Origin: Chloroflexota bacterium
GTDB taxonomy: Bacteria; Chloroflexota; Limnocylindria; P2-11E
Length of the DNA stretch: 64,000 nucleotides
Direction: 5' to 3'
NCBI GenBank assembly: GCA_021787445.1
Contig: JAJYLV010000004.1
Span: forward strand, 17,095 to 81,094
This document shows positions 21,411 through 48,022 of this stretch, one piece after another. The notes beneath the pieces were generated by a model, which saw only the letters and a program-made list of their open reading frames with translations, ran no database searches and had not been told where the DNA came from. Numbering within the stretch: the first letter of the stretch is position 1; every line of letters starts with the position of its first letter. A program made the position numbers and the translations under genes.

Positions 21411-21601
21411 GTAGCCCCTCCTTGTCGTGAGGGGATGCTAGCGTGCCGCTTCGGCGAAAGTGTGCGTTCCGCGACGTCCGGTCTTGAGCTCCTGGACGCG
21501 GAGGCGCCGGAGGTGCAGCGGCGACGCTTGCGGCTCGTGGGTCTCGCGTGGCGCATCGCGGACATCGCAGAGGTGACGCCGCTGCCGCGGATCTCAAGCC
21601 G

Positions 21602-21675
21602 TGGGCTGAAGAGGGCTCGAACCTCTGACCTCTTGCATGTCAAGCAAGTGCTCTGACCAGCTGAGCTACCAGCCC
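21602..21675 (-). tRNA. tRNA-Val (anticodon GAC)
   Basis: Cloverleaf: acceptor GGGCUGG/UCAGCCC, D arm GCUC...GAGC, anticodon arm CUUGC-UUGACAU-GCAAG, T arm AGAGG-UUCGAGC-CCUCU, discriminator A. No encoded CCA. Confidence 0.85.
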
Positions 21676-21690
21676 CGTCGAAGCACCAGT

Positions 21691-22815
21691 CTACCGCCAC
21701 GCGCGGGGGCGGTCGACCTCTCTGCGCTCCTGTCCGAACGCGCGAAAGCCCGCGGCCGGAGCGTCCTTCGCGAACAGGAGGACGCGGAACGCCCCCAGGC
21801 CGTTCGGATCGAGCAGCGTGTCCACGGCGGAGCGCCGGCTTGCGGCGCGCAGCTGCTCCAGGGGCGTCGACGGACGCGCCGCAGCCTCGCGGGCGCCGAG
21901 CGCGAGCAGCACCTCACGCTGCGTCCGTGCGCCGGCCAGCCGCAGCCCGGCGCCCTCGGCGGCGCGCCGTATCGCGGTGACGTTCACCGTCGCGGTGATG
22001 TCGATCTCCCCCGGACGCTGGAGCGGGTCGCCCATCAGGCGGTGCCGGCTGAACCCGCGGAGCGTCCCCTCGCCGAGGCGCGCGAGGAGACCCGCCTCGT
22101 CGTCGGCGTAGTCGATGAGGAGGAGGTAGCCGCGCGTGAGCGCGGCGGCGATCTGAGCGACCCAGCTTTCGGCCGCCAGGCTCACCTCCCAGCGCCCCCC
22201 CATCGGCAGCGTCTCCGGCACACGCCACCGCAGATCGGGCCGGCTGGCCGCGCGCAGCGTCTCCACGAGCCGGCTTCCCTCGGCGGCCACGTACACCTCG
22301 CGCACGCCGTCCTCGGTCCGCACCAGGACGTGGACCGGGAAGGCGTCGAGCACCTCGTTGCCGAAGATGAGACCGTGGATCGGCGCGAGCCCGTGCGCCG
22401 CCGTCGCCCACCGCAGCTCGCGCCCGCCGAGCGCGATCGCCTGGAGGTCGCGCAGGCGTGGCGACACCTCGACGATCGCGGGACGGGCTCCGCGCGCCGC
22501 GTCGGGACGCTCCCGCTCCAGAGCGGCGAGGAGGTCGCGCATGACGATGCCGCGCCCCGCGCCGGCCTCGACCAGGTCCCAGGCTGCGGGCCGCCCGAGC
22601 GCGGTGTGTGCGTCGATCGCCATCCGCGCGAGGGCGCGGCCGAAGGACGGACCGAGATCGCCCGACGTGAAGTAATCGGCGTCCTCGAAGCCGATCGCGG
22701 CGCGCGTGGTGTAGTAGCCGTCCTCGGGGTCGAAGAGGGCCGCTTCCATGAAGCTGGCGAAGGTGATGGGGCCGTTCGACCGGATACGCGCGATCAGACG
22801 GTCGGCCAGCGCCAC
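21691..22815 (-). CDS. SAM-dependent methyltransferase, MidA/NDUFAF7 family (DUF185, COG1565)
   Basis: LIARIRSNGPITFASFMEAALFDPEDGYYT N-terminus and Rossmann-like motifs (EAGAGRG). The start is uncertain; a GTG near 22815 is proposed. The track ORF extends to 23535. Confidence 0.7.
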   Translation of the reverse strand: MALADRLIARIRSNGPITFASFMEAALFDPEDGYYTTRAAIGFEDADYFTSGDLGPSFGRALARMAIDAHTALGRPAAWDLVEAGAGRGIVMRDLLAALERERPDAARGARPAIVEVSPRLRDLQAIALGGRELRWATAAHGLAPIHGLIFGNEVLDAFPVHVLVRTEDGVREVYVAAEGSRLVETLRAASRPDLRWRVPETLPMGGRWEVSLAAESWVAQIAAALTRGYLLLIDYADDEAGLLARLGEGTLRGFSRHRLMGDPLQRPGEIDITATVNVTAIRRAAEGAGLRLAGARTQREVLLALGAREAAARPSTPLEQLRAASRRSAVDTLLDPNGLGAFRVLLFAKDAPAAGFRAFGQERREVDRPRAWR

Positions 22816-23528
22816 GCGCCGAGGGTAGTCGCTCCCGACGGGCGGGAGGTCGCGCTCGGCGTCGGGAAGGGGTGGAAGCCGCTCTCGACGTAGTGGTCTC
22901 CGGCCCACGTGAACGTGCGCAGGATCCGCGGGTCGAAGCGTCCCCCGGCGACCCTGCCGCTCCCCTCGAGGACCGCCACGCGCCCCGGCGCGAGCTCGAT
23001 CTCCGCGAGCGCGCCGACGGGCCGGCGCAGAAGCTCCTCCATCCGCCCGCGCACCCATCGCGCGATCACGACCTCGTTCCGGCCGCAGGCCGTGCCGCCG
23101 CACTGGCCCACGACGTAGACGAGGTGCTCCTCGCCCGTGCCCGACGGGACGACAGCCAGCCTGAGGATGCGCCGCGCTTGTGCGGTCGCGGCGCTCTGGA
23201 ACGTGAGGTCGACGAGCGGCGACGCCGCGCCCGGCGGGCCGACACGCAGGTGCTGCGAGAGGACGGGCGGCTTCACCCTCACCCAGGTCTGGCGGAGCTC
23301 GACCTCGAGCGGTGGACCGCCCTGCTGTTCGATGGGGAAGGCGCAGCGCGCGTCGTTCCCCACCGGGAGGTACTGCCGCAAGGCGCAGAGGTCGTCGTCG
23401 ACGGGCGCCGCCGCGACCGCCGTCGAACGCGGCGCGAGAAGTCCCGACCAGTCGGCCAGGATCGCCCCGACCGCCGCCCAGGCGAGCACCGCGACGGAGA
23501 CCGCCAAGAGCCGCGCGCCCCTCCGCAT
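22794..23528 (-). CDS. hypothetical protein with N-terminal signal-anchor
   Basis: 244 aa. Hydrophobic N-terminus (LLAVSVAVLAWAAVGAIL), coding-like composition, and co-directional with the flanking genes. Confidence 0.45.
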   Translation of the reverse strand: MRRGARLLAVSVAVLAWAAVGAILADWSGLLAPRSTAVAAAPVDDDLCALRQYLPVGNDARCAFPIEQQGGPPLEVELRQTWVRVKPPVLSQHLRVGPPGAASPLVDLTFQSAATAQARRILRLAVVPSGTGEEHLVYVVGQCGGTACGRNEVVIARWVRGRMEELLRRPVGALAEIELAPGRVAVLEGSGRVAGGRFDPRILRTFTWAGDHYVESGFHPFPTPSATSRPSGATTLGAWRWPTV

Positions 23529-23575: not shown

Positions 23576-25990
23576 TCAGGCCCCCCAGCGAGGCGGCGCC
23601 GGCGGACGGACCTCCGGCGGACGCACCCTTCCGCGACGCTCCTCGCCGTCGGTGGGGATGGCCTCGCTCGGCTTCCAGGTCCGCGCGACGGCCAGCTCCT
23701 CCTTGGCGACGACGGTCCGCCCGAAACGCTGGTACACGGAGAGCTCGAAGTTCGGCGTCTCGCCGAGCGCGGCGTGGGGGCACACTTCGACGCAATCGCC
23801 GCAGTAGATGCAGCGGGTGATGTCGAGCTCCCACGTCTCGAGGTCGCGCTCGCGCATCATGAGCGCGCCCGTCGGGCACGTCTCCGCGCACGCCCCGCAC
23901 GACACGCAGTCGGTGTACTGGAGCGACACGTTCCACGGGGTCGTGACGATCGAGTCGTACCCGACGCCCATGAGGCCGTAGCAGTTCGCGCCGATCACGT
24001 CGCGGCAGATGCGCACGCACTGCGTGCAGTTGATGCACTTGTTGAGGTCGCGAAGGATGAAGTCGTGGCTGAAGTCGTACTCGTAGTCGTGGAAGTCGCG
24101 CGGCTCCGCCCGGTGGAAGCGGTTATCGGTCAGGCCGTGCTCGAGCGAGAGGCGCTGCAGGTGGCAGCGGCCGACGTCCGGGCACACGCACTGTAGGCAG
24201 CGCGCGGCCTCCTTCTCGGCCTGCGGCTTGGCGTATCCGTTCTCGATGAGCTGGAAGCTCTGCACCCGCTGGTCGAAGGGCAGGAACGGCATGCGGACCT
24301 GCGGCTCCTCGGGCTTGTAGGGCACGATGTCGATGAGCTCCGGCACCGACTCCTCTTCGGTGATCTCGGCGGCGACGCGCGCCATGTCGGCGCCGCTCAG
24401 GTACTGATCGATCGCTTTCGCCGCGAGCTTGCCCTGCGCGACCGATTGGATGACCGTGACCGCGCCCATCTGACAGTCGCCGCCGGCGAAGACGCCGGGG
24501 CGGTCCGTCATGAGCGCACCGCTGGCGACGATCGTCTCGCGCCGCGTCTTGCGCAGCCCCGGCGACCCCTCATACCAGTCGAGGTTCGGGACCTGGCCGA
24601 TCGCGGGGATGACGGTGTCGCACTCGATGACGAAGTCGGAGCCCTCGATCGGGACGGGACGCCGCCGGCCGGAGGCGTCCGGCTCGCCGAGCGCCATGCG
24701 CTGGAACTCGACGCCGCCCACGCGGCCGTCCTTCTCGACGACCTTCACCGGGGCCGCGAAGAACTCCAGCCGGATGCCCTCGTGCTCGGCGTCGTCGACC
24801 TCGCTGTAGTGCGCACCCATCTCCTTGCGCGAGCGGCGGTACACCACCGTCACGTCCGCGCCGAGGCGGCGCGAGGTGCGCGAGCAGTCGAACGTCGTGA
24901 AGCCTCCGCCGATGACGACGACCCTGCTGCCCTTCCCCACCGGCACCGGGTCGCCGGAGGCGTTCTGGTTCAAGTAGCTGATGGCCTCGATGACGCCGGG
25001 AAGATCCTCGCCGGGGATGCGGAGCTCGTTGCTCCGCCACGCGCCGAGCCCGAGGAAGACGGCGTCGTAGCCCTGCGCGAAGAGGTCATCGACCGTGAAG
25101 TCTCGGCCGAGCATCATCCCGCCCTTGAACTCGGCACCCAGCTGCCACACGCAGTTGAGCTCCTTGTCGAGCTTCACCTTGGGCAGGCGGTACTCGGGGA
25201 TGCCGTAGCGGAGCATCCCGCCCTGCTTCGGCATCATGTCGAACACCGTCACCTGGTGGCCCTTGAGCGAGGAGTAGTAGGCGCACGTCATCCCCGCGGG
25301 TCCCGCGCCGACGACGGCGACCCTCTTCCCCGTCGCCGGCGCCTGCGGGAACGGCGTCGGCGCCTTCTCCATCTCCGCGGAGAGCTCGCCGAAATAGCCG
25401 TGGCACTGGCGGATGGCGATCTCCTCCTCCACCAGGCCGCGGCGGCAGACCTCCTGGCACGGCGCCGGACAGACGAGGCCGAGCGCGTACGGGAACGGAA
25501 GCGTCTCCTTGAGCACGCGCGCGGCCTCGATGTGCTGGCCCTTGGCCTCGAGCTCGAGGAAGCCGGGGATGTCGATGTGCGTCGGGCAGCCGACCTGGCA
25601 GGGCGGCATGCAGTAGGCGTTGTGATCGCTGAGGATGTACTCGAGGTTCTGGCGTCGCTTCGTGAAGAGGCCGTCGCTCGTCGCCTTGATCTTCATGCCG
25701 GGCTGGACGGGCAGGTGGCACGACGGCATCGGCCGCTCGAAGCCCTCGATCTCGACGAGACACATGCGGCACGCCGCCGCGGGAGCGAGCTTCTCGTCGT
25801 CGCACAGCGTCGGGATGTTGTATCCGGCGCGTTGGGCCGCGCGGAGGATCGACTCGCCGATGGCGGCGGTGACCTCCTGGCCGTCGATCTCGATCGTGCA
25901 CGTGGGCATCCCCGAGGGGATCTCCCCGTGGTGCGACACGGTGGGGATCTGCGACTCGGTCGATTGGACGTACCGTTCGAGGATGCTCAC
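23576..25990 (-). CDS. multidomain iron-sulfur flavoprotein: NuoG-like N-terminal [2Fe-2S] ferredoxin + GltD-like FAD/NAD(P)H oxidoreductase + NuoG-like [4Fe-4S] motif + 2x[4Fe-4S] ferredoxin
   Basis: N-terminus TIEIDGQEVTAA...CDDEKLAPAAACRMCLVEIEG...PSCHLPVQPG (NuoG/2Fe-2S). Then CMPPCQVGCPTHIDIPGFL...LVCPAPCQEVC...KRVAVVGAGPAGMTCAYY...YGIPEYRLPK (GltD family). Then CINCTQCVRIC (NuoG N4-like), CVSCGACAETCP and CIYCGDCVEVCP. Confidence 0.8.
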   Translation of the reverse strand: MSILERYVQSTESQIPTVSHHGEIPSGMPTCTIEIDGQEVTAAIGESILRAAQRAGYNIPTLCDDEKLAPAAACRMCLVEIEGFERPMPSCHLPVQPGMKIKATSDGLFTKRRQNLEYILSDHNAYCMPPCQVGCPTHIDIPGFLELEAKGQHIEAARVLKETLPFPYALGLVCPAPCQEVCRRGLVEEEIAIRQCHGYFGELSAEMEKAPTPFPQAPATGKRVAVVGAGPAGMTCAYYSSLKGHQVTVFDMMPKQGGMLRYGIPEYRLPKVKLDKELNCVWQLGAEFKGGMMLGRDFTVDDLFAQGYDAVFLGLGAWRSNELRIPGEDLPGVIEAISYLNQNASGDPVPVGKGSRVVVIGGGFTTFDCSRTSRRLGADVTVVYRRSRKEMGAHYSEVDDAEHEGIRLEFFAAPVKVVEKDGRVGGVEFQRMALGEPDASGRRRPVPIEGSDFVIECDTVIPAIGQVPNLDWYEGSPGLRKTRRETIVASGALMTDRPGVFAGGDCQMGAVTVIQSVAQGKLAAKAIDQYLSGADMARVAAEITEEESVPELIDIVPYKPEEPQVRMPFLPFDQRVQSFQLIENGYAKPQAEKEAARCLQCVCPDVGRCHLQRLSLEHGLTDNRFHRAEPRDFHDYEYDFSHDFILRDLNKCINCTQCVRICRDVIGANCYGLMGVGYDSIVTTPWNVSLQYTDCVSCGACAETCPTGALMMRERDLETWELDITRCIYCGDCVEVCPHAALGETPNFELSVYQRFGRTVVAKEELAVARTWKPSEAIPTDGEERRGRVRPPEVRPPAPPRWGA

Positions 25991-26005: not shown

Positions 26006-27241
26006 CTAGGGCTGCGCCATCGTCTCGTAGCGCCGCGCGCGGACCGGCGTGCAGGTCCCCTCCGGACAGCGGCGGTCGACGATGTGCGTGCGGTAGTCAT
26101 CCGGGAACTCGGCGAGCGTCGTCCGCACGATCGACGCGCTCGTGATCCCGAAGCCGCACAGCGAGAAATCGCTCAGGTGATCCGCGAGCTGGCCGAGCCA
26201 CGCGAGGTCGTCGTCGCGGCCGAGCCCCGAGGAGACGGACTCGAGGATCCCCCCGACGCGCTTGGTCCCGACGCGGCACGGCACGCAGATCGCGCAGGTC
26301 TCCTTCGACAGGTACTCGAAGAGGCGCGCCGCCTCCGCGACGATGCAGGTGCCCTCCGGGATCGCGCGCACCTGTCCGGATCCCATGTACGTTCCCGCCG
26401 CGCGAAGGTCCTCGTAGTCGTAGCGCACGCCTGTCCGGGTCGAGCTGAGGATCCCGCACGTCGGCCCTCCGACGTGGATCGCCTTGAGCGCGTGGGTCAC
26501 CCCGCCCGCCGTCTGGACGATCTCGCCGAGCGTCGTCCCGAGGCTCACCTCGTACACACCGGGCTCCACGACGGCTCCCGTGACCGAGACGAGCTTCGTC
26601 CCGCGGGAGCCCTCCCGGCCCCCGAAGGAGTCCGGGCCGTCGCGCACGATGAGGGGAAGCGCCGCGAGGGTCTCCGCGCACGAGACGAGCGTCGGCCGCA
26701 TCGCCCGCCCCTGCTCCGCCGGCCACGGCGGCCGCTGGCGCGCCATCGCGCGCTTGTTCTCGAGGACCGCGAGCAGCGCGCTCTCCTCCCCGCCCATGAA
26801 GCCGCCGGGGCCGAGCGCGATCTCGATCGACACGTCCGTCCTGCCGTCGCGCGAGGCGATGGCCCTCTCCGCGGCGCTCCGCGCGTCCGCCGCCTCGGGG
26901 CGCAGGTAGAGGTAGGCCTGGCGCGCCCCGACCGCCCGTGCCGCGATGAGGATCCCGTCGACGACGAGCTCGGGCGAGCGCCGCAGCAGCGTCTGCGACA
27001 GGGGGCTGGCGGGGTCCGCGTCGTACGCGTTGGCGACGAGGTAGGCGGCCCCGCCCGCGAGCTCGGCCGCGGTCCGCGTGGCCCGCATCTTCTCTCCGAG
27101 GGGGAAGCCGGCGCCGCCGCGTCCGCGCAGCGCCGCGCTCTCCACCAGCCCGATCGTCTCGTCGGGCGAGAGCGAGAGAGCGCGCTCGAGGGCGCCCGAC
27201 GGGTCGGCCCCCAGGACGCGGAACGCCGTCTCAGTCGGCAT
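26006..27241 (-). CDS. nuoF: NADH dehydrogenase 51-kDa subunit homolog (NuoF-like; FMN/NADH binding, [4Fe-4S])
   Basis: GRGGAGFPLGEKM, GEESALLAVLENKRA and the cluster N3 motif ETCAICVPCRVG...LCGFG. Confidence 0.85.
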   Translation of the reverse strand: MPTETAFRVLGADPSGALERALSLSPDETIGLVESAALRGRGGAGFPLGEKMRATRTAAELAGGAAYLVANAYDADPASPLSQTLLRRSPELVVDGILIAARAVGARQAYLYLRPEAADARSAAERAIASRDGRTDVSIEIALGPGGFMGGEESALLAVLENKRAMARQRPPWPAEQGRAMRPTLVSCAETLAALPLIVRDGPDSFGGREGSRGTKLVSVTGAVVEPGVYEVSLGTTLGEIVQTAGGVTHALKAIHVGGPTCGILSSTRTGVRYDYEDLRAAGTYMGSGQVRAIPEGTCIVAEAARLFEYLSKETCAICVPCRVGTKRVGGILESVSSGLGRDDDLAWLGQLADHLSDFSLCGFGITSASIVRTTLAEFPDDYRTHIVDRRCPEGTCTPVRARRYETMAQP

Positions 27242-27953
27242 ACGCGGGCTCCAGCGGTTGCTCTATCTCCGATTCGTGCAGCCTGTCGTACGCCGGAGGC
27301 GGCGACACCGGCGGCCACGCGCCGGCGATGCCGAGGTTGCCCGTGTAGCGCCGGCCACCGCGGGGCACCGGGGTCCCTCTGCCCGCGGGAGCGCCGTGGA
27401 AGTTCGGCAGCATCGAGGCCGCCGTGTAGATGCTCGTCATGGTCATGTCGAACTCCGCGGCGATGAGCTCGGCGGCGGTCCACGGCAGGTATCCGTACGC
27501 CTGGTGCGCCGCGTAGAGCACGCGGTGAAGGCGGTCCGCGGTGTGCGGCGTCTCGGTGAGGATGCGACGCATGGGTCCGAGGTCGAGCGCGGTCTCCTCC
27601 TCCGCGGGAACGGTCGTCACCACCTGCGACATCGGCCGGCGCGCCCCGTAGGGCGCGGAGCAGACCATGCGGATCCGGTAGTAGGCCATGCGCGGCGCCA
27701 TCGTCGGGCGCTTGCGGAAGCCGTTGCGGAACGTGTACGAGATCGAGATCGCGCGCGGCGGGCACGCTTTCTCGCACATGAGGCACGACTCGCACTTGAA
27801 AATGTCCGTCTCCGGCTCGAGGAGGAGCGCGATGAGGCCGCGGCTCCGCTCGGGGAGCTCCCGCTTCTCGTACGGGTACTTCCGCGTGACGGCCTTGTGC
27901 CGCAGCAGGTGGTCCATCGTCCGGCGCAGCCCGATGAAGATGCCGCTGATCAT
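27231..27953 (-). CDS. chimeric or degenerate ORF: NuoI-like N-terminal half (one CxxCxxCxxxCP motif) fused to a NuoE-like N-terminal helical domain that lacks the [2Fe-2S] cysteines
   Basis: Residues 1-95 match NuoI (RKYPYEKRELPERSRG...KCESCLMCEKACPPRAISI...YYRIRMVC) but the second ferredoxin motif is missing. Residues about 125-190 match the NuoE N-terminal domain (LHRVLYAAHQAYGYLPWTAAELIAAEFDMTMTSIYTAASMLPNFHGAPAGR). No Cys-bearing continuation is found in any frame. Confidence 0.5.
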   Translation of the reverse strand: MISGIFIGLRRTMDHLLRHKAVTRKYPYEKRELPERSRGLIALLLEPETDIFKCESCLMCEKACPPRAISISYTFRNGFRKRPTMAPRMAYYRIRMVCSAPYGARRPMSQVVTTVPAEEETALDLGPMRRILTETPHTADRLHRVLYAAHQAYGYLPWTAAELIAAEFDMTMTSIYTAASMLPNFHGAPAGRGTPVPRGGRRYTGNLGIAGAWPPVSPPPAYDRLHESEIEQPLEPAYAD

Positions 27954-27966
27954 CGCCCGCCGCTCC

Positions 27967-29163
27967 TCACCTATCGACGTCCCCGAGCACGATGTCGATC
28001 GAGCCGAGGATGGCCACGAGGTCGGCGATGAGGCGACCCTTGAGCAGCCACGGCAGGATCTGCAGGTTCATGAAGGACGGGCCGCGCATCTTCGCGCGGA
28101 ACGGATCCGGGTTCGACCCGCCGCTGCTGATCATGTAGAACCCGACCTCGCCCTTGGCGCCTTCGACCGTGTAGTAGGCCTCGCCGCGCGGGCACTTCCA
28201 CACGTGGCCTTGGCGCGAGCGGACGGGGCCCGCCGGCAGCTTGTCGATGGCCTCGCGGATGAGCGCGATCGAGAGCTTCATCTCGTTCACGCGGACCTGA
28301 TAGCGCGCGAACGCGTCGCCCTCGGAGAAGACGACCGGCTTGAGCGTCTTCAGCTCGGGGTAGATCGAGTACGGACGGTCACGCCGGAGGTCCCAGTCGA
28401 CGCCCGACCCGCGCGCCATCGGGCCGGTGAGCCCGTACTGGACGGCCACCTCCTTGGGGATGACGCCGATGCCCACCGTCCGCTCGAGGAAGATCTCGTT
28501 GCCCTCGAGGATCTCGCGGTAGTCCCGGTCGATCGACTTCTCCCAGCCGTCGAGGAAGCGCTCGATCTTGCCCAGGACGCCCTGGGGGAAGTCGTAGAGG
28601 AGCCCGCCGGGGCGGTAGTAGTTGTGGTTCATCCGCGACCCGCAGATCTCCTCGAGGATATCGAGGATGTACTCGCGGTCGCGCATGCACCACAGGAACG
28701 GCGTCGTCGCGCCGACGTCGAGGCCGTACGTCCCCAGCCAGATACAGTGCGACGCGGAGCGCGAGAGCTCGTCGACGATGACGCGCAGGAACTCGGCGCG
28801 GCGCGGGACCTCGACGCCGGCGATCGCCTCGGCCGCGCCGCAGTAGGCGTGCTCGTTGAGCATGGCCGAGACGTAGTCGGCCTGGTCGGCGTAGCGCGGC
28901 CCCTGCTGGTAGGTCCGCCACTCGAAGATCTTCTCGAGCCCGCGGTGGAGGTAGCCCACGACCGGCACGCAGTCGACGACCATCTCGCCGTTCAGCTTGA
29001 GGACGAGGCGGAGGACGCCGTGCGTGGAGGGGTGCTGCGGCCCGAGGTTGAGGATGAGCTCCTCGGTCTCGAGCCCTTCGCCGATGGTCTCGATCTCCGG
29101 CGGTCCGGCCTCCGCGGGCACGCCGCCCTGCTGCTCGTGCCGGGTGTCGGTCTCGGTGGCCAT
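27967..29163 (-). CDS. nuoD: NADH dehydrogenase 49-kDa subunit homolog (NuoD-like, not a [NiFe] hydrogenase large subunit)
   Basis: LNLGPQHPSTHGVLRLVLKLNGEMVVD...YLHRGLEKIFEW and a C-terminus ending VLGDVDR. Neither the N-terminal RxCGxC nor the C-terminal DPCxxC Ni-binding motif is present. Confidence 0.85.
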   Translation of the reverse strand: MATETDTRHEQQGGVPAEAGPPEIETIGEGLETEELILNLGPQHPSTHGVLRLVLKLNGEMVVDCVPVVGYLHRGLEKIFEWRTYQQGPRYADQADYVSAMLNEHAYCGAAEAIAGVEVPRRAEFLRVIVDELSRSASHCIWLGTYGLDVGATTPFLWCMRDREYILDILEEICGSRMNHNYYRPGGLLYDFPQGVLGKIERFLDGWEKSIDRDYREILEGNEIFLERTVGIGVIPKEVAVQYGLTGPMARGSGVDWDLRRDRPYSIYPELKTLKPVVFSEGDAFARYQVRVNEMKLSIALIREAIDKLPAGPVRSRQGHVWKCPRGEAYYTVEGAKGEVGFYMISSGGSNPDPFRAKMRGPSFMNLQILPWLLKGRLIADLVAILGSIDIVLGDVDR

Positions 29164-29172
29164 CAGATCCGC

Positions 29173-29757
29173 TCAACCACCCCGGAAGATCTTCTCGCGG
29201 AGCCGCAGGATGCCCTCGATCAGCGCCTCGGGGCGCGGCGGGCAACCGGGAACGTACACGTCGACCGGGACGACCGTGTCGACCCCCTGCAGCGTCGCAT
29301 AGCTGTCCCAGAACTCTCCGCCCGACGACGCGCAGTTGCCCATCGCGATCACCCACTTCGGCTCGGGCATCTGCTCGTAGAGGCGCCGCAGCCGCGGCGC
29401 CATCTTGTGCGTCACCGTGCCCGCGACGATCATGACGTCCGCCTGCCGGGGGCTCGAGCGGAAGACCTCGGCGCCGAACCGCGCGAGGTCGTGATGCGAG
29501 GCGGAAGCCGCCATCATCTCGATGGCGCAGCACGCCAGGCCGTAGCCGAGCGGCCACGGGCTGCGCGAGCGCGCCCAGCTCATGAGGTCCTTGACCGTCG
29601 CGAACACGACGTTGTCCTCGTTCGCGATCGCGCCGGGGGTCGGGGCGACGTAGTCGGGCGCCCCAAGGCCTGTCTGGGTGGTCGTCGGCCGCTGCTTCAG
29701 CGCGTCCGAGATCTCGAAGTGGATCGGCCGCGCGGGGGGCTTCTGGTCGACTGCCAT
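29173..29757 (-). CDS. nuoB: NADH dehydrogenase 20-kDa subunit homolog (NuoB-like, cluster N2 ligands present)
   Basis: [15 protein letters not shown] and GCPPRPE motifs. Confidence 0.85.
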
Positions 29758-29769
29758 CTGAGGTGGAGT

Positions 29770-30603
29770 CTAGGGAAGATCGCGCGGACCTTGCACGCGA
29801 AGCAGCAGCGCGACGAGGGCCTGGTGTATCCCCGGCCCGCTCGCGACCAGCGTCGGTGCGTCCGGCCGTACGCCCTTCGTCTCGCTGAGCATCCCTCCCG
29901 CCTCCGACACGAGGAGCCGTCCGGCCGCGCAGTCCCACTCGTGCCCGCCCGATTCCGCGTACGCATCCAGTCGCGACCCGGCGACCCACGCGAGGTCGAG
30001 CGCCGCCGATCCCATGCGTCGCACGTCGCGGACGGCCGGCACGATGAGCGCTTCGCGGCGCGCTTGCTCGCGCCGCTCCTCGGCGCTGTACGAGAACCCG
30101 TCGGCCAGGAGCGCGAGGCCCAGGTCGGCGACGCGGCTCACCGCGAGGCGGCGTGCCCCTGACGCGTCCGCCGACGCCCGCAGCCAGGCGCCCTCGCCGC
30201 GCACCGCGGAGAAGAGCTCATCGCGCGTCGGGTCGTAGGTCACTCCGACGAGGGGTCCGCGTGCGTCCGCGCACGCGATCGTCACGCACCACTGCGGGAT
30301 CCGGTAGAGGTAGTTCACCGTTCCGTCGAGGGGATCGACGAGCCAGCGCCGTCCCGAGGTCCCGCCCGAGCCGCCGCCCTCCTCCGAGACGATCGCGTCG
30401 TCGGGATACGTGCGACGGATCGCCGCCACGATGAGCGCTTCCGAGGCGCGGTCGGCGTCGCTCACCTCGTCCGTCGGCGTCGTCTTCGTCGCGCGCCCGG
30501 TCGCCGGGCCGCTCCAGCGATCGAGGAGGAGGCGGCCGGCGGCGACCGCGGCGCCTTCCGCCGTCGCGAGCACGTCGGCGCACGACCTCGGCGGCGCCGT
30601 CAC
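29770..30603 (-). CDS. inositol monophosphatase family protein (SuhB/ImpA-like)
   Basis: WLVDPLDGTVNYL and WDCAAGRLLVSEAGG motifs. GTG start overlaps the upstream stop (GTGA). C-terminal part of a longer track ORF. Confidence 0.8.
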   Translation of the reverse strand: MTAPPRSCADVLATAEGAAVAAGRLLLDRWSGPATGRATKTTPTDEVSDADRASEALIVAAIRRTYPDDAIVSEEGGGSGGTSGRRWLVDPLDGTVNYLYRIPQWCVTIACADARGPLVGVTYDPTRDELFSAVRGEGAWLRASADASGARRLAVSRVADLGLALLADGFSYSAEERREQARREALIVPAVRDVRRMGSAALDLAWVAGSRLDAYAESGGHEWDCAAGRLLVSEAGGMLSETKGVRPDAPTLVASGPGIHQALVALLLRVQGPRDLP

Positions 30604-32228
30604 TCCGTGGTGACGCGTCCCGCGCTGACGGGGGAGATCGGCGAGCGTGCGGCCAGGTAGGCCGCGACGACGTCGAGATCGACGTCGCCGTAGATCACGT
30701 TCGAGCCCTGCGTGAACACGGTGTGCCCATCGCCCCCGCCCTGAAGGTAGTCGACCGTCGCGACGTGGTAGACGCGCCCGGGATCGAGCGGCTGTCCGGC
30801 GATCGTCGCCCGCGCGACGCGGTCCCCCACCCTCGCGGACGATCGGTACGCGAGCGTCGCTCCGGACACGAAGAGCCTCCCCGCCGCGCCGGCCATCCCT
30901 TCGAACACCTCCCTCAGCTGAGCGCCGGTGAGGTCGACGCTCACCACGGTGTCCTGGAACGGCAGGACCTCCGCCAGGCGCTCGTACGTGACGTCGCCGC
31001 GCGGGATCGAGGCGCGGATGCCCGCGGCGTTGTAGAAGGCGAGGTCGCTGCGCCATCCCTCCCGTCGGCCGTAGTCGAGCAGCGCGTCGGCGACCAGCTC
31101 CCCCAGTGCGTTGTTCATGTCGCGGTCGGCGGCGAACGTCGCGCTCGCGGTCCCGACGACGCGCTTGCCGTACTTGTCGGCGTCGGCGCGGCGCTGCGCC
31201 ACGAGCGCGGCGACGCTCGCCAGAGGCGCGGCCGCCCCCGTCGTGACCGCAAGGATCACGTTGGACGTCCGCACCGACGCGACGTGCCGCGTCGCCGGGT
31301 CCACCGTGACCTCGACCCGCCCGAGCTCGCGTCCGTAGGCGCCGGCCTGGAAGATCATCGTCGGGCCCACGCTCCGGGGGGTCGTCAGCGTGATGTGATC
31401 GTGCCCGCCGATGATGAGGTCGATGCCCGGCACGGCCCCCGCGAGGGCGGTGTCGCCGCCCGCGATGCGCGACGTGCCGCCCTCGATGCCCAGATGGCTG
31501 AGGACGACGACGACGTCGGCCCGCCGCCGCACCTCCGGCAGGTATCTCCGCACGCTCTCGATCCCCGGCAGGAACACCAGGCCCTTCGTGCTGGTCGCCT
31601 TGATGATCGACGCGCTCGGATACGTCAGCCCGATGATCCCGACCCGCGCGATCCCGAGGTCCTTGACGATGTAGGGCGTCGCCCACGCCGGCGGCCTGCC
31701 GGTCGCGGACTCCACCACGTTCGCCGCGAGGAACGGGAAGCTCGCCTCCGCCGCCCGCTTCGCCAGCTCTTGCTGTCCCCAGTCGAGGTCGTGGTTGCCG
31801 ATCGTCTGCGCGTCGTACCCGATCAGGCTCATCGCCTTGGTCATCGACGCGCCGTGGTCCATTGCGGCGATCAGAGTGCCGCTGAGGGCGTCACCCGCGT
31901 CGAGCGTGAGCGTCCTAGTGGGAGCGCGCGAGCGCTGCAGCTGGATCATCCCACCGAGGAGCGCCATCCCGCCCTGCTCGACCGTCCGCCCCGCCGTCGT
32001 CGCGTCGAGGTGGCCGTGGATGTCGTTGGTGTGGAGGATCTGGAACGCGTTCGGCGGGAGGGAGGCGAGCGCGGCGACGCCCGGCGCGGTGCGCCCGGCG
32101 GACGGCGTCGCGGCGATCGGCGCGCTGGCCGTGCACGCCGCCGCGATGACCGCGGCGACGAGGAGAGCGAGAGCGCTACGCCGGCTGATGCGCCCGGTAC
32201 TGCAGCTCGTAGAGGCGATGGTAGACAC
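30600..32228 (-). CDS. secreted 5'-nucleotidase / bifunctional metallophosphatase (UshA-like), Tat signal lipoprotein
   Basis: TNDIHGHL and GNHD calcineurin-like motifs plus a 5'-nucleotidase C-terminal domain. Signal peptide with RRSALALL and AACTA lipobox. The GTG start overlaps the 3' end of the upstream ABC gene by about 50 nt. Confidence 0.75.
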   Translation of the reverse strand: MSTIASTSCSTGRISRRSALALLVAAVIAAACTASAPIAATPSAGRTAPGVAALASLPPNAFQILHTNDIHGHLDATTAGRTVEQGGMALLGGMIQLQRSRAPTRTLTLDAGDALSGTLIAAMDHGASMTKAMSLIGYDAQTIGNHDLDWGQQELAKRAAEASFPFLAANVVESATGRPPAWATPYIVKDLGIARVGIIGLTYPSASIIKATSTKGLVFLPGIESVRRYLPEVRRRADVVVVLSHLGIEGGTSRIAGGDTALAGAVPGIDLIIGGHDHITLTTPRSVGPTMIFQAGAYGRELGRVEVTVDPATRHVASVRTSNVILAVTTGAAAPLASVAALVAQRRADADKYGKRVVGTASATFAADRDMNNALGELVADALLDYGRREGWRSDLAFYNAAGIRASIPRGDVTYERLAEVLPFQDTVVSVDLTGAQLREVFEGMAGAAGRLFVSGATLAYRSSARVGDRVARATIAGQPLDPGRVYHVATVDYLQGGGDGHTVFTQGSNVIYGDVDLDVVAAYLAARSPISPVSAGRVTTE

Positions 32229-39778: not shown

Positions 39779-40824
39779 ATCCCCGCCGGGTCGAGCCGGT
39801 CCACCGCCATCCCTTCGCGGAGCACCTCGGAGCGCGCCCCCTTCGGCAGACCGCGCGCGTGGCGCTTCCACGACCGGCCCGCATCGGTCGTGGCATAGAC
39901 CGCGATGCCGGGGTCCGGCGCGATCCGCGTCTGCCCTTCGAGCGGGATCACGTACGCCGTCTTCGGGTCACGCGGGTGGATCGCCGATGCGAAGCCGAAC
40001 GAATACTTGTCGAACTGCAGGCTCGCCTCGGGGAGCCCGGCGCTCGTCTCGTGCCAGCCCGCTTCTCCATCGTTCAGCCAGTACACCCCGAAATGGTTCT
40101 GCTGGAAGCGCACCCCCGGGGTCGTCGGGTGGGCGACGAGGTGATGCACGCAGAACCCGACCTCGGGCTCCTTCTGCGGATCCATCGGGTTGGCGAGCCC
40201 CTTGTTGCGCGTGGCCCACGTCCTCCCGCCGTCCGCCGACTCGAACACGCCCACCGCGCTGATGCCCACCTGCATCTTCTTGGCATCCGCGGCGTCGATG
40301 GCGATCGAGTGCAGGATCAGGCCGCCGGCGCCGGGGTTCCACTGGTCGTGCGTCGGATGATCGGTGAGCGACGCGACCTCGCTCCACGTCTCGCCGCGGT
40401 CATCGCTGCGGAAGAGCGCCGCCGGCTCGATGCCCGCCCACATGACCTTCGGCTGCGAGGAATGGCCCGGCTCGATGTGCCACGTGCGCTCGAACACGAG
40501 CTCACGCGTCACCTGCTTCGGCATCTGCTCGCCTTCGACCCAGGTGTGGTACGTCGCCACCCTGCCCTTGGCGAACGCGGGGTTCGAGACCACTTTCCAC
40601 GTCTTCCCCTGATCCCGGCTGACGCGGATCTTCGGGCCGCCCCACGTGAGGTTGCACGCCGCGAACATCGACTCGCCGTCGCGTGGATCGAACGCCATGT
40701 GGTGTACGGGCTCACCGGGAAAGAGCGGCCCTTCCGCCGTCCACCGCTTGCGCCCGCCGCCGGCGCGAAAGATATACGCGCCCTTCTTGGTGCCGACGAG
40801 CACCGCGACCTTCTTCGCCGCCAT
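39664..40824 (-). CDS. cytoplasmic BNR/Asp-box repeat beta-propeller protein (sialidase-like fold)
   Basis: Five Asp-box repeats (SRDQGKTW, SDDRGETW, SADGGRTW, TTDAGRSW, SADEGRTW). No signal peptide. ATG overlaps the stop of the upstream MoaD-like gene (ATGA). Confidence 0.75.
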   Translation of the reverse strand: MAAKKVAVLVGTKKGAYIFRAGGGRKRWTAEGPLFPGEPVHHMAFDPRDGESMFAACNLTWGGPKIRVSRDQGKTWKVVSNPAFAKGRVATYHTWVEGEQMPKQVTRELVFERTWHIEPGHSSQPKVMWAGIEPAALFRSDDRGETWSEVASLTDHPTHDQWNPGAGGLILHSIAIDAADAKKMQVGISAVGVFESADGGRTWATRNKGLANPMDPQKEPEVGFCVHHLVAHPTTPGVRFQQNHFGVYWLNDGEAGWHETSAGLPEASLQFDKYSFGFASAIHPRDPKTAYVIPLEGQTRIAPDPGIAVYATTDAGRSWKRHARGLPKGARSEVLREGMAVDRLDPAGIYFGTEGGEVWGSADEGRTWALVAQYLPPVMSVSAATI

Positions 40825-41105
40825 CAGTCCCCTCCCGACATCGCCGGCACGAGGGTGAGGACGTCGCCCTCGCGGAGGGGCGTCTTCTCTCCCTTCAGCC
40901 GGCGGATCTCGTCCTCGTTCCGGAAGACGTTCAGATGCTGACGGATGCGGCCCTGTTCGTCACGGATGCGCTCGCGCAGCCCCGGCAGCTCGCCCGGCAA
41001 CACGTCGAGCGCCTCGCCGACCGTTCGCGCATCGATCGCGACGTGGCGCACGCCGCCCGCCATCTCGCTGAAAGCGCCGTGGAGCCGCACCGTCACGCGC
41101 GCCAT
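40824..41105 (-). CDS. MoaD/ThiS-family beta-grasp (ubiquitin-like) protein ending GlyGly-Asp
   Basis: 93 aa with the MoaD-like pattern and a C-terminus ...LTLVPAMSGGD. Nine nt downstream of the kinase gene. Confidence 0.7.
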   Translation of the reverse strand: MARVTVRLHGAFSEMAGGVRHVAIDARTVGEALDVLPGELPGLRERIRDEQGRIRQHLNVFRNEDEIRRLKGEKTPLREGDVLTLVPAMSGGD

Positions 41106-41114
41106 CGCCGGACG

Positions 41115-42076: not shown

Positions 42077-43483
42077 CTAGATCGCGCCCTCGCGCCGCAG
42101 CGCCTCGATCTCCGCGCCGCTGTACCCGAGCTCTCCGAGGACCTCGTCGGTGTGCTCGCCCAGGAGCGGAGGGTGCCGGCGGACCGACGGCGGCGTGAGG
42201 TCCATGCGGACGGGGATCCCGGGAGCGCGGACCCGGCCGGCGACGGGGTGGTCGGTCTCGGCGATGAGACCGAGGTGCTTCACGACCGGGTCGTGGAAGA
42301 CCTCCTGCAGGTCGTTGATCGGCCCGACGGGGACGTTCGCTTCGCGCAGCCTCCGCACGACCTCCGCCTTCGGGAGGTCGCCGATACGGGTGGACATCGC
42401 GGCGACGAGCGCGTCGCGATTCCGTAGACGCGCACGATTGCCGGCGAAGCGCTCGTCGCTCGGGAGATCCTCGAGGTCGAGCGCGTGGCAGGCGCGCCCG
42501 AACAGGGCGTTGTTGCCACAGCACACGTTCACGTAGCCGTCCGACGCCTTGAACGTCTGATACGGCGCGATGGAAGCGTGGAGGTTCCCCTCGGGCCGCG
42601 GCACGGTGCCGTCCGCGAAGTAGCGTGCGGCCTGTCGCGAGAGGAGCGCCACCTGGCCCCCGATCATCGTCGCGTCGATGACCTGGCCCGTGCCGGTCCG
42701 CGCGCGCGCGTGGAGCGCGGCCACGATGGCGAACGCCGCGAACATGCCCGCGACCATGTCGCCCTGCGGGACGCCGACCATCGTCGGCATGCCGCCCGGC
42801 TGGCCGGTCAGACTCATGATGCCGCCCATCCCCTGGACGATGAGGTCGTACGCCGCCCACGCACGGCCGGGGCCGTCCTGGCCGAAGCCGGAGATCCGGC
42901 AGAGGACCGCGCGCGGCGCGATCGCGCGGATCCGCTCGGGCGGGAAGCCGAGGCGCTCGAGCGTGCCGGGGCTGAAGTTCTCGACGACGACGTCCGCGTC
43001 CTCGATGAGGCGCTCGAGGATCCTCTTGCCCTCCGCGTTCTTCAGGTCGATCGTCACGCTCCGCTTGTTGCGGTTGATGGAGAGGTAGTAGGCCGAGACG
43101 CCGTTCACGTCGGGCGGCGCCCACTCCCGGGTCTCGTCGCCGGTCCCGGGCATCTCGACCTTGATGACGTCCGCGCCGTGGTCCCCCAGCATCAGCGTGC
43201 AGTACGGCCCGGCGAGAGCGCGCGTGAGGTCGACCACGCGGATGCCGTCGAGCGCGCCCCCCGTGCCGCCGCTGATCGCCGGCAGCACCTCGATCGTGTC
43301 GCCGGCGCGCAGCCTCATCGAGGCCTCGCACTGCTCGCCGTTCAGTACGTAAGCGGCCGTCGCGCCGGTCGGTATCCCGACGGCCGACAAGACCTCGGCG
43401 ACCGTCAGTCCGTCACCGTGGACCTCGAGGACCTTCCCGGGCGCGAACTGGCGGAGCTCCCCGTGGAGGATGAGGCGGACCAC
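42077..43483 (-). CDS. fusion protein: N-terminal ThiS/MoaD-like beta-grasp domain (ends ...PAISGG) + family III CoA-transferase (CaiB/BaiF/Frc family)
   Basis: Residues 1-73 MVRLILHGELRQF...VAEVLSAVGIP...AAYVLNGEQCEASMRLRAGDTIEVLPAISGG fit the ThiS/MoaD pattern. They are followed directly by the CoA-transferase III N-terminus TGGALDGIRVVDLTRALAGPYCTLMLGDHGADVIKVE. No stop or start lies between the two parts. Confidence 0.75.
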   Translation of the reverse strand: MVRLILHGELRQFAPGKVLEVHGDGLTVAEVLSAVGIPTGATAAYVLNGEQCEASMRLRAGDTIEVLPAISGGTGGALDGIRVVDLTRALAGPYCTLMLGDHGADVIKVEMPGTGDETREWAPPDVNGVSAYYLSINRNKRSVTIDLKNAEGKRILERLIEDADVVVENFSPGTLERLGFPPERIRAIAPRAVLCRISGFGQDGPGRAWAAYDLIVQGMGGIMSLTGQPGGMPTMVGVPQGDMVAGMFAAFAIVAALHARARTGTGQVIDATMIGGQVALLSRQAARYFADGTVPRPEGNLHASIAPYQTFKASDGYVNVCCGNNALFGRACHALDLEDLPSDERFAGNRARLRNRDALVAAMSTRIGDLPKAEVVRRLREANVPVGPINDLQEVFHDPVVKHLGLIAETDHPVAGRVRAPGIPVRMDLTPPSVRRHPPLLGEHTDEVLGELGYSGAEIEALRREGAI

Positions 43484-43571
43484 TTCGGGCGGACGATACC
43501 CCGCCCTTCGCAGGGCGCCCGCCGCCGGTTACCGTGGGGACGTGAGCGACGACGCCGTCTCGCGCGCGCCT

Positions 43572-47187: not shown

Positions 47188-47691
47188 CTACGGGATCTTC
47201 TTCAGCTCGTCCTCGATCTCGGCCATGTCGGGGACCTCGCGGAGCGCGTGCACGTCGATGTAGCGCACGATCCCCGCACGGTCGATCACGAAGATCGCCC
47301 GCTCCGGCCGCCCGACGCCCTCGTTGAAGACGCCGTAGGCGCGGGAGAGCGCGCCGTGCGGCCAGAAGTCGGAGCAGAGCGGGATCTCGACGCCCTTCAG
47401 CTCGTCGGCCCACGCCTTCAGCGCGTACACCGTGTCGCACGAGATGCCCAGCACCTGGACACCGTCCGCGCCCGCCTTCCGCTGAAGGCCGCCGAGCGCG
47501 GGGATCTCGCTGTTTCAGGTGTTGGTGAAGGCGAACGCGAAGAACGCGACGACGACCTTCTTCCCGAGGAAGGCGCCGAGCACGATCTCGCGCCCGTCGT
47601 GCGACCGAAGGGTGAACGCCGGAGCGGCGTCCCCGACCCTGAGGGTCGCCGTGTCGCTCGCGAGCTTCGTGCGTCCGACGGGCGCGGTCAC
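47188..47691 (-). CDS. AhpE-like 1-Cys peroxiredoxin with in-frame TGA at the peroxidatic position (candidate selenoprotein)
   Basis: Two adjacent track ORFs (47515..47958 and 47188..47454) lie in the same frame, separated only by TGA at 47515-47517. Joined sequence ...VVVAFFAFAFTNT-U-NSEIPALGG...VLGISCDTV...IPLCSDFWPHGALSRAYGVFNE...FVIDRAGIVRY aligns with AhpE/Prx (FFPLAFTGIC...). GTG start at about 47691. Confidence 0.65.
47455..47503 (-). promoter_or_regulatory. putative bacterial SECIS-like hairpin downstream of the in-frame UGA
   Basis: Starting about 13 nt after the UGA: CCCGCGC-UCGGCG-GCCUUC-AGCG-GAAGGC-GG-GCGCGGG. Two stacked GC-rich helices with a G-containing apical loop. Confidence 0.45.
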
Positions 47692-47709
47692 GCCCGCTAG
47701 AGTACCGGC

Positions 47710-47913
47710 GTGCCGACCGACGTTCAGCCCACGCGGATCGAGGCGGATCGCGCCCGCTTCCTCGCCTACCAGGTCGCATGTCCCTTCGACGGGACGCTGG
47801 TGGGCCCGCGCTTCGTGACGCGCGAGCAGCTCGACGTGCCCCCGAGCCCGCCGTACGCCGCGACGGTGCGCTGCCCCAACGACAAGCAGCTCTTCGAGGT
47901 GGTCTTCCGCTAG
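47710..47913 (+). CDS. hypothetical small protein (67 aa)
   Basis: GTG start, high GC3 and non-repetitive composition (LAYQVACPFDGTLVGPRFVTREQLDV...VRCPNDKQLFEVVFR). Divergent from the peroxiredoxin gene. Confidence 0.45.
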   Translation: MPTDVQPTRIEADRARFLAYQVACPFDGTLVGPRFVTREQLDVPPSPPYAATVRCPNDKQLFEVVFR

Positions 47914-47962
47914 GTGCCGGACCGGCGATGCCGGCGCCGCCCGCCCGCGGCGCCTCATCGCA

Positions 47963-48022
47963 TCAGAGCGGAGCTACTTCTTCTTCGCGCTCTTCTTCGC
48001 TGACTTCTTGGCAGCCTTCTTC
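47963..48022 (-). CDS. Lys-rich mini-protein (19 aa, MPAKKKAAKKSAKKSAKKK)
   Basis: ATG preceded by a strong SD GGGAGGGAGGUGAUCUCG. Co-directional with and 52 nt downstream of the HTH gene. Confidence 0.5.
   Translation of the reverse strand, partial: EEGCQEVSEEEREEEVAPL

Follow-up and report, generated by a model that had tools for sequence, protein, structure and literature searches.

The locus described here raises the question of whether a bacterial methyltransferase of the MidA/NDUFAF7 family is encoded together with the protein that it modifies. It lies on contig JAJYLV010000004.1 (assembly GCA_021787445.1) of a bacterium of the Chloroflexota class Limnocylindria, of which a stretch of 64 kb, hereafter the window, was analyzed. 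Within it, the gene for an S-adenosylmethionine (SAM)-dependent methyltransferase, here called MidA, follows several genes that resemble those of respiratory complex I, nuoD among them. In human cells, complex I assembly depends on a dimethylated arginine beside the Fe-S cluster N2, and early embryonic development of vertebrates requires NDUFAF7. The symmetric dimethyl-arginine is present in the bovine, human, Pichia and Paracoccus denitrificans enzymes, but not in Escherichia coli NuoCD (Carroll et al. 2013, PMC3750175), and in human cells it is made by NDUFAF7 (Rhein et al. 2013, PMC3829151). The stability of cluster N2 depends on this arginine, and Thermus has a threonine in its place (Hameedi et al. 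2021, PMC8042128). The initial annotation of the window took the gene order as a hint of NuoD-directed methylation. The comparisons below support that suggestion: the window protein is probably a bacterial MidA/NDUFAF7 orthologue and a maturation factor predicted, from sequence and gene neighborhood, to methylate NuoD, whose gene lies four genes upstream in what is probably a shared transcription unit.

The window protein belongs to the MidA/NDUFAF7 family (PF02636, COG1565) by sequence, motif and fold. Its match to PF02636 (Methyltransf_28) scores 181.4 bits against a cut-off of 23.3 bits (E 2.7e-53) and covers profile positions 2–247 of 249, and a 50-sequence family profile matches Dictyostelium MidA (5ztz) over the full length, residues 5–360 (E 4e-62), and also aligns to both bacterial COG1565 crystal structures. 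The AlphaFold2 (AF2) model of the protein has a mean predicted local distance difference test (pLDDT) score of 94 and a predicted template modeling (TM) score (pTM) of 0.92. In a Foldseek search it matches 4g67 (TM 0.87/0.84), 1zkd (0.83/0.87) and 5ztz (0.83/0.78), while all other methyltransferases have TM scores of 0.42 or less. SAM motif I (E83-AGAGRG) and the family motifs GYY, DYFTS, NEVLDAFPVH, IDY and PGEIDIT are all present, and in the 50-sequence alignment 14 of 14 invariant columns are kept (L27, G33, Y34, Y35, D47, T50, G89, E154, D157, G229, D235, Y236, G269 and D272). Local deviations occur at two family positions, where DITAHVDF has become DITATVNV and IDYG has become IDYA. Identical and near-identical proteins are found in Chloroflexota metagenome-assembled genomes (MAGs) of the class Candidatus (Ca.) Limnocylindria, under the names "SAM-dependent methyltransferase" (NCBI) and "MidA family methyltransferase" (JGI); NCBIfam has no model for the family.

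The MidA open reading frame (ORF) has exactly the coordinates of the initial annotation, with a GTG start at 22815–22813 and a TAG stop at 21693–21691 on the minus strand. The start is backed by the nearest relative (locus L088), whose protein begins MGLADRL at the position aligned to VALADRL of the window. Since the window has about 70% G+C, real and shadow frames were told apart by G+C at third codon positions (GC3), which is about 0.93 in the MidA frame. A plus-strand ORF at 21637–22893 has the GC3 pattern of a shadow frame and was ruled out as a real gene.

The proposed substrate and its partner, NuoD and NuoB, are genuine complex I-type subunits. NuoD scores 427 bits against the NCBIfam model PRK06075 (cut-off 360 bits), and its best PDB matches are NdhH (6hum_H, 4e-104) and Nqo4 (5e-102). 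It contains the motif VVGYLHRGLEKI, in which the candidate target is Arg74 (GYLH-R74-GLEK; codon 28944–28942), and it has the quinone-site residues GPQHPSTHG (HPSTH) and Tyr97. An identity as a hydrogenase large subunit (Hox or group 4) was ruled out by the best matches, by the NuoD model score and by the lack of any CxxC, the NiFe-hydrogenase cysteines being absent. NuoB scores 244 bits against NCBIfam NuoB (cut-off 116 bits) and keeps the cluster N2 cysteines (CC...C...CP; ...GNCA...PGCPP).

For the linkage of the two genes, the initial annotation had named beforehand, as the test that could refute it, the neighborhood association of COG1565 with nuoD across bacteria; this association proved to be strong. 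The sample comprised 80 MidA loci, one genome per species, from about 12 higher taxa: 9 from Limnocylindria and 71 from Cyanobacteria, Nitrospirota, Acidobacteriota, Verrucomicrobiota, other Chloroflexota, Bacillota, Geobacter and one archaeon. Flanks of up to 10 kb on each side were searched with the window's proteins. A nuoD homolog lies within 10 kb of MidA in 24 of the 80 loci, in every case on the same strand. Outside Limnocylindria the linked loci number 20 of 71, against 0.3–1.1 expected by chance in 1.10 Mb of flanking sequence (Poisson P ≤ 1e-18, not corrected for phylogeny). When all flanking ORFs were clustered, NuoD was the top specific neighbor (23 loci); only ABC ATPases span more taxa, and these lie at scattered positions and on both strands. 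The sequence GYLHRGxEK is kept in all linked NuoD homologs.

At least four different MidA–nuoD arrangements were found. In Limnocylindria MidA follows the cluster: wherever the upstream flank spans at least 2.6 kb (10 of 10 loci), the gene for an 804-aa Fe-S flavoprotein fusion precedes MidA, either directly or no more than 2.2 kb away; this order is kept down to 64% MidA identity, while the intervening gene varies or is missing and the downstream genes vary. In Nitrospirota MidA heads the series nuoA-B-CD-E-F-G-H-I-J in 8 of the 10 loci whose flanks are long enough. In cyanobacteria a stand-alone ndhH lies 32 bp to 4 kb upstream of MidA on the same strand in 11 of 23 loci with adequate flank (L029, L031, L047, L056, L058, L059, L062, L063, L068, L072 and L081), and in L062 the two ORFs overlap by 4 nt. 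Finally, in other Chloroflexota-labelled MAGs, of which L085 is typical, MidA stands at the head of a complete operon, NuoA-B-C-D-H, E-like, F, fusion, J-K-L-M-N (5 of 5 loci). In a fifth case, from a 2021 preprint, Ca. Actinomarina has NDUFAF7 after a nuo operon of 11 subunits (bioRxiv 10.1101/2021.02.01.429150). Only NuoD is common to all arrangements, because the cyanobacteria have ndhH alone beside MidA. In a neighbor-joining tree the linked MidA proteins fall into separate clades, and within cyanobacteria they are mixed among unlinked ones.

In the window itself, MidA closes a co-directional array of protein genes. From about 9 kb to 41 kb every gene is on the minus strand, and the order of transcription is 5′-nucleotidase, inositol-monophosphatase family (IMPase), NuoB, NuoD, NuoI/NuoE-like, NuoF-like, the 804-aa fusion, a hypothetical protein (hyp244), MidA and tRNA-Val(GAC) (Table 1). 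This confirms the initial description of MidA as co-directional with and downstream of nuo-like genes, with one hypothetical ORF between. Gaps of only –22 to +47 nt make it probable that the eight genes, IMPase through MidA, form one transcription unit. The MidA start overlaps the hyp244 stop by 22 nt, and a scan of 19.5–31 kb, which says little for a Chloroflexota genome, gave no promoter-like sites and a single terminator-like site, on the non-coding strand; the overlap and the lack of such sites on the coding strand likewise argue for co-transcription, which bears on the second refuting condition named initially, a promoter of MidA's own. The overlaps of hyp244 with MidA and of ndhH with MidA in L062 also suggest translational coupling.

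Table 1. Features of the MidA locus in the window (positions in nucleotides of the window; all on the minus strand)
Feature	Position	Strand	Basis and remarks
tRNA-Val(GAC)	21601..21675	-	ARAGORN; 15 nt past MidA stop, same strand
MidA/NDUFAF7-family SAM-dependent methyltransferase, 374 aa	21691..22815	-	PF02636, family profile, AF2 model/Foldseek
hyp244, N-terminal hydrophobic segment, lineage-specific	22794..23528	-	GC3 0.93
804-aa Fe-S flavoprotein fusion, StnC/NfnA-like	23576..25990	-	Pfam domains, PDB sequence matches
NuoF-like FMN/NADH-binding subunit, divergent	26006..27241	-	PF01512, PF10589, SLBB
240-aa NuoI/NuoE-like protein	27231..27953	-	NuoI N-terminal part, then weak NuoE-like part
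NuoD (49-kDa/NDUFS2 homolog), 398 aa, proposed substrate	27967..29163	-	PF00346 E 3.5e-86
Candidate NuoD substrate peptide for MidA, VVGYLHRGLEKIFE			
NuoB (PSST/NDUFS7 homolog)	29173..29757	-	PF01058 E 1e-31
IMPase gene	29770..30699	-	PF00459 E 9e-61; 12 nt upstream of nuoB

The homologs human NDUFAF7 and Dictyostelium MidA suggest the following course of events. Co-transcription, which the short gaps suggest, would produce MidA together with its substrate. MidA would bind free NuoD and dimethylate, with SAM, the guanidino group of Arg74 in GYLHRGLEK. If work on mitochondrial complex I is a guide, the methylated NuoD would then be let go and would pair with NuoB, with the modified arginine beside cluster N2.

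This idea has precedents, being already in print for proteobacteria and proposed for mitochondria. The initial statement that bacterial family members have no assigned function is true experimentally, but a role in bacterial NuoD methylation was derived in silico in 2018 (Hameed et al. 2018, as cited in PMC9006661 and PMC12455994); as the first of these, a 2022 review, puts it in citing that study, bioinformatic and structural evidence indicates that alphaproteobacterial homologs methylate NDUFS2. Our literature search returned no relevant papers on NdhH dimethylarginine, NuoD arginine methylation or COG1565 with complex I. What is new here is the gene-neighborhood evidence over several non-proteobacterial phyla, including cyanobacterial ndhH. 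The cyanobacterial linkage predicts arginine methylation of NdhH in photosynthetic NDH-1, and an operon that would carry both enzyme and substrate offers a simple system in which to reconstitute the methylation, for which E. coli is a suitable host because its own NuoCD is unmodified.

Several points weigh against NuoD methylation by MidA. In about 70% of the MidA loci sampled, no nuoD lies within 10 kb, and the family also occurs in Bacillota and in one archaeal MAG. The loci are phylogenetically non-independent and the real number of independent linkage events is about 4 or 5, not 24; for this reason the varied arrangement between lineages is a stronger argument than the counts. The target arginine is indeed present in the local NuoD, as initially noted, though its presence adds little and is non-discriminating because it is conserved in nearly all NuoD proteins. 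The local cluster has neither NuoC nor any membrane subunit that would define the complex which NuoD enters. From the literature, MidA function in prokaryotes has been deduced in silico only, and a Wolbachia MidA was reported to methylate DNA, at adenine and cytosine, when expressed in E. coli (both PMC12455994). One locus was also withdrawn as an independent Acidobacteriota lineage: L043 (DASRJS010000075.1, labelled Ca. Polarisedimenticolia) has a doubtful label, as its fusion protein is 84–99% identical to proteins mostly labelled Chloroflexi or Limnocylindrales, and the contig is probably mis-binned or the gene recently transferred. Finally, in the Limnocylindria locus L007, MidA stands beside the fusion gene but NuoB, NuoD, NuoI/NuoE-like and NuoF are not found within 7 kb, which points to a split cluster or a misassembled contig. 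Upstream of the fusion gene that contig (L007:1–11110) carries genes for UPF0182, a GFO/IDH/MocA oxidoreductase and a DegT aminotransferase instead of nuo genes.

L007 speaks for the alternative that MidA serves a respiratory-type complex but methylates another of its subunits, namely the StnC-like fusion, NuoB or NuoF, and the regular position of the fusion gene immediately or nearly immediately upstream of MidA in Limnocylindria points the same way as far as the fusion is concerned. The other lineages speak against it: the cyanobacterial loci have only ndhH, with no NuoB, NuoF or fusion homolog within 10 kb, and the Nitrospirota have a normal NuoG and no fusion. All three candidates are thus disfavored because NuoD is the sole partner that every arrangement shares, and moreover the eukaryotic enzymes bind and methylate NDUFS2 (PMC3829151, PMC9006661). 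We regard a different subunit as unlikely to be the target.

It is somewhat less likely still that the gene adjacency has no functional meaning and that the true substrate is something else, whether DNA, another protein or a small molecule. The Wolbachia result, the many MidA loci distant from nuoD, the presence of the family in taxa whose complex I status is not established and the lack of a functional NCBIfam model would all fit such a role. Against it stand the co-directional linkage in at least four arrangements, with 20 cases seen where about one or fewer was expected, the failure of any other specific gene family to recur across lineages, and the gene overlaps that suggest translational coupling. 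The least probable alternative, a mainly non-catalytic chaperone that holds NuoD before NuoB docks and for which methyl transfer is dispensable or lost, draws on the direct binding of NDUFS2 by NDUFAF7/MidA, its classification as an assembly factor (PMC9006661) and the two changed family positions, but it is opposed by the retention of SAM motif I with every invariant residue and by the failure of a methyltransferase-deficient Dictyostelium mutant to rescue the knockout (PMC9006661).

Methylation of NuoD by MidA remains the reading that we prefer, and it leads to the nature of the complex to which NuoD belongs. The initial annotation spoke of nuo-like genes, which holds for NuoB, NuoD and NuoF; E, G and I are present only as rearranged pieces, and NuoA, C, H and J–N are not among the annotated genes of the window. 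Nor were NuoA, C, H or J found within 10 kb in 11 related Limnocylindria loci, and when NuoA, C, E, G, H, I and J were sought in the window and these 11 loci, only the rearranged G and I pieces were recovered. The window cluster is not a canonical nuo operon. The 804-aa fusion consists of a NuoG N-terminal 2Fe-2S domain, a GltD/NfnB-like FAD/NAD(P)H module, NuoG-type 4Fe-4S domains and a NuoI-like 2x[4Fe-4S] C-terminus (Pfam, and tblastn with NuoG and NuoI of locus L036), and it scores below every NCBIfam cut-off. Its residues 32–732 match 9bov (1e-168), 8oh5_C (2e-159) and NfnA of 9n5u (6e-149), aligning to residues 5–697 of chains of 1172–1178 aa; the C-terminal ~450 residues of StnC, a molybdopterin-/formate-dehydrogenase-like domain, have no counterpart. 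The NuoF-like protein scores 268 bits against NCBIfam NuoF, less than the cut-off of 559 bits. The 240-aa protein has one CxxCxxCxxxCP motif, corresponds to NuoI residues 15–80 by tblastn, matches PF01257 weakly and is below the NCBIfam NuoI cut-off. Canonical NuoE, F, G and I are therefore not what this cluster encodes: NuoG is cut to its N-terminal Fe-S domains with a GltD-like insert, NuoI is split over the 240-aa protein and the C-terminus of the fusion, and the NuoE match is weak.

The same composite proteins also sit in the complete nuoA-N-type operon of other Chloroflexota-labelled MAGs (L085:3287–18687, and L087, L089 and L090). Because they occur within complete operons of this type, the fusion and NuoI/NuoE-like proteins can belong to a membrane-bound complex I variant, and the gene content suggests one in which a Stn/Nfn-like NAD(P)H input module replaces NuoG, NuoI and NuoE. 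This neighboring variant merits a study of its own. No single assembly with both a window-type cluster and a complete L085-type operon was found among the assemblies recovered; GCA_041643075.1 and GCA_009772775.1 are examples of MAGs with the window-type cluster. A wider interpretation can be offered only tentatively and may well be wrong: dimethylation of the N2-proximal arginine by MidA would be an ancient and widespread maturation of NuoD-type proteins beyond proteobacteria and mitochondria, including cyanobacterial NdhH and an undescribed Chloroflexota complex I variant with a Stn/Nfn-like fusion in place of NuoG and NuoI, and the window cluster would be a second, separately kept peripheral module with a dedicated MidA.

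Comparison with known systems is informative here. Human NDUFAF7 and Dictyostelium MidA (5ztz) share with the window protein PF02636, the full-length fold with its family-specific insertions (TMq 0.83) and the SAM motif, and HRGxEK is present in the co-encoded NuoD. The window protein differs from them in having only ~20% identity to 5ztz (structural alignment) and no mitochondrial targeting sequence, in being encoded in an operon with its presumed substrate and in having a partner complex with a non-canonical input module. The closest solved structures are the COG1565/DUF185 structural-genomics proteins of Burkholderia thailandensis (4f3n/4g67) and Rhodopseudomonas palustris (1zkd), with TM 0.83–0.87 and 27–32% identity; these, unlike the window protein, are proteobacterial. 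Nqo4 of Paracoccus denitrificans is a bacterial NuoD homolog modified at the equivalent arginine and provides the only experimental evidence of the modification in bacteria (PMC3750175), but Paracoccus is an alphaproteobacterium with a canonical complex I, and its modifying enzyme has not been identified experimentally. Ca. Actinomarina resembles the window in having a PF02636 gene, read as an assembly factor, at the 3′ end of a nuo cluster in a non-proteobacterial genome. Its operon has all the membrane subunits and lacks NuoEFG, whereas the window cluster is the reverse, with an input module and NuoB/NuoD but no membrane subunits. The bifurcating transhydrogenases StnABC/NfnABC (8oh5, 9n5u, 9bov) are alike in that the fusion aligns to StnC/NfnA over ~700 residues and has NuoF-like and NuoE-like partners as in Stn; the window fusion differs in lacking the C-terminal molybdopterin-like domain, in having a NuoI-like C-terminus and in being encoded with NuoB/NuoD.

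The remaining genes near MidA are less constant. No Pfam or NCBIfam match was found for hyp244; its orthologue in the nearest relative, L088, is 73% identical, and no homolog was found in 84 other loci. In L005, L006 and L012, MidA directly follows the fusion gene with no hyp244. A role for hyp244 as a conserved MidA partner was thus ruled out, only the nearest relative having it, and it is not homologous to hyp353, which precedes MidA in other operons. In the complete Stn-like operons a conserved ORF of ~350 aa directly precedes MidA (L085:737–1798, L087:902–1975 and L043:8919–9965; 48–58% identity between loci); it has no Pfam or NCBIfam match, is not a homolog of hyp244 and may be another assembly factor.

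At the upstream end, the 5′-nucleotidase and IMPase genes lie directly upstream of nuoB almost without gaps (29770–32228, minus strand). The IMPase gene adjoins NuoB also in the Limnocylindria relatives L003, L013 and L088 and may be where the transcription unit begins. At the other end, tRNA-Val(GAC) may share a transcript with the cluster or show where the cluster stops; a 190-nt gap follows, and then come genes for an NMT1-type binding protein, a hypothetical protein and threonyl-tRNA synthetase (ThrRS).

Elsewhere in the window, an AhpC/TSA peroxiredoxin ORF (47188–47973, minus strand) has one in-frame TGA (47515–47513), and because this codon takes precisely the place of the peroxidatic cysteine (FAFTNT*NSEIP), the product is a candidate selenocysteine protein. 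A hairpin resembling a selenocysteine insertion sequence (SECIS) after the TGA was rejected, its stability not exceeding that of shuffled controls, and no tRNA-Sec was found in the window. A family III CoA-transferase gene (42077–43528, minus strand) has an N-terminal ThiS-like domain in its stop-to-stop translation, which is either a fusion or an upstream in-frame small gene, and a separate ThiS-family ORF (40824–41114, minus strand) lies 1 kb downstream of it.

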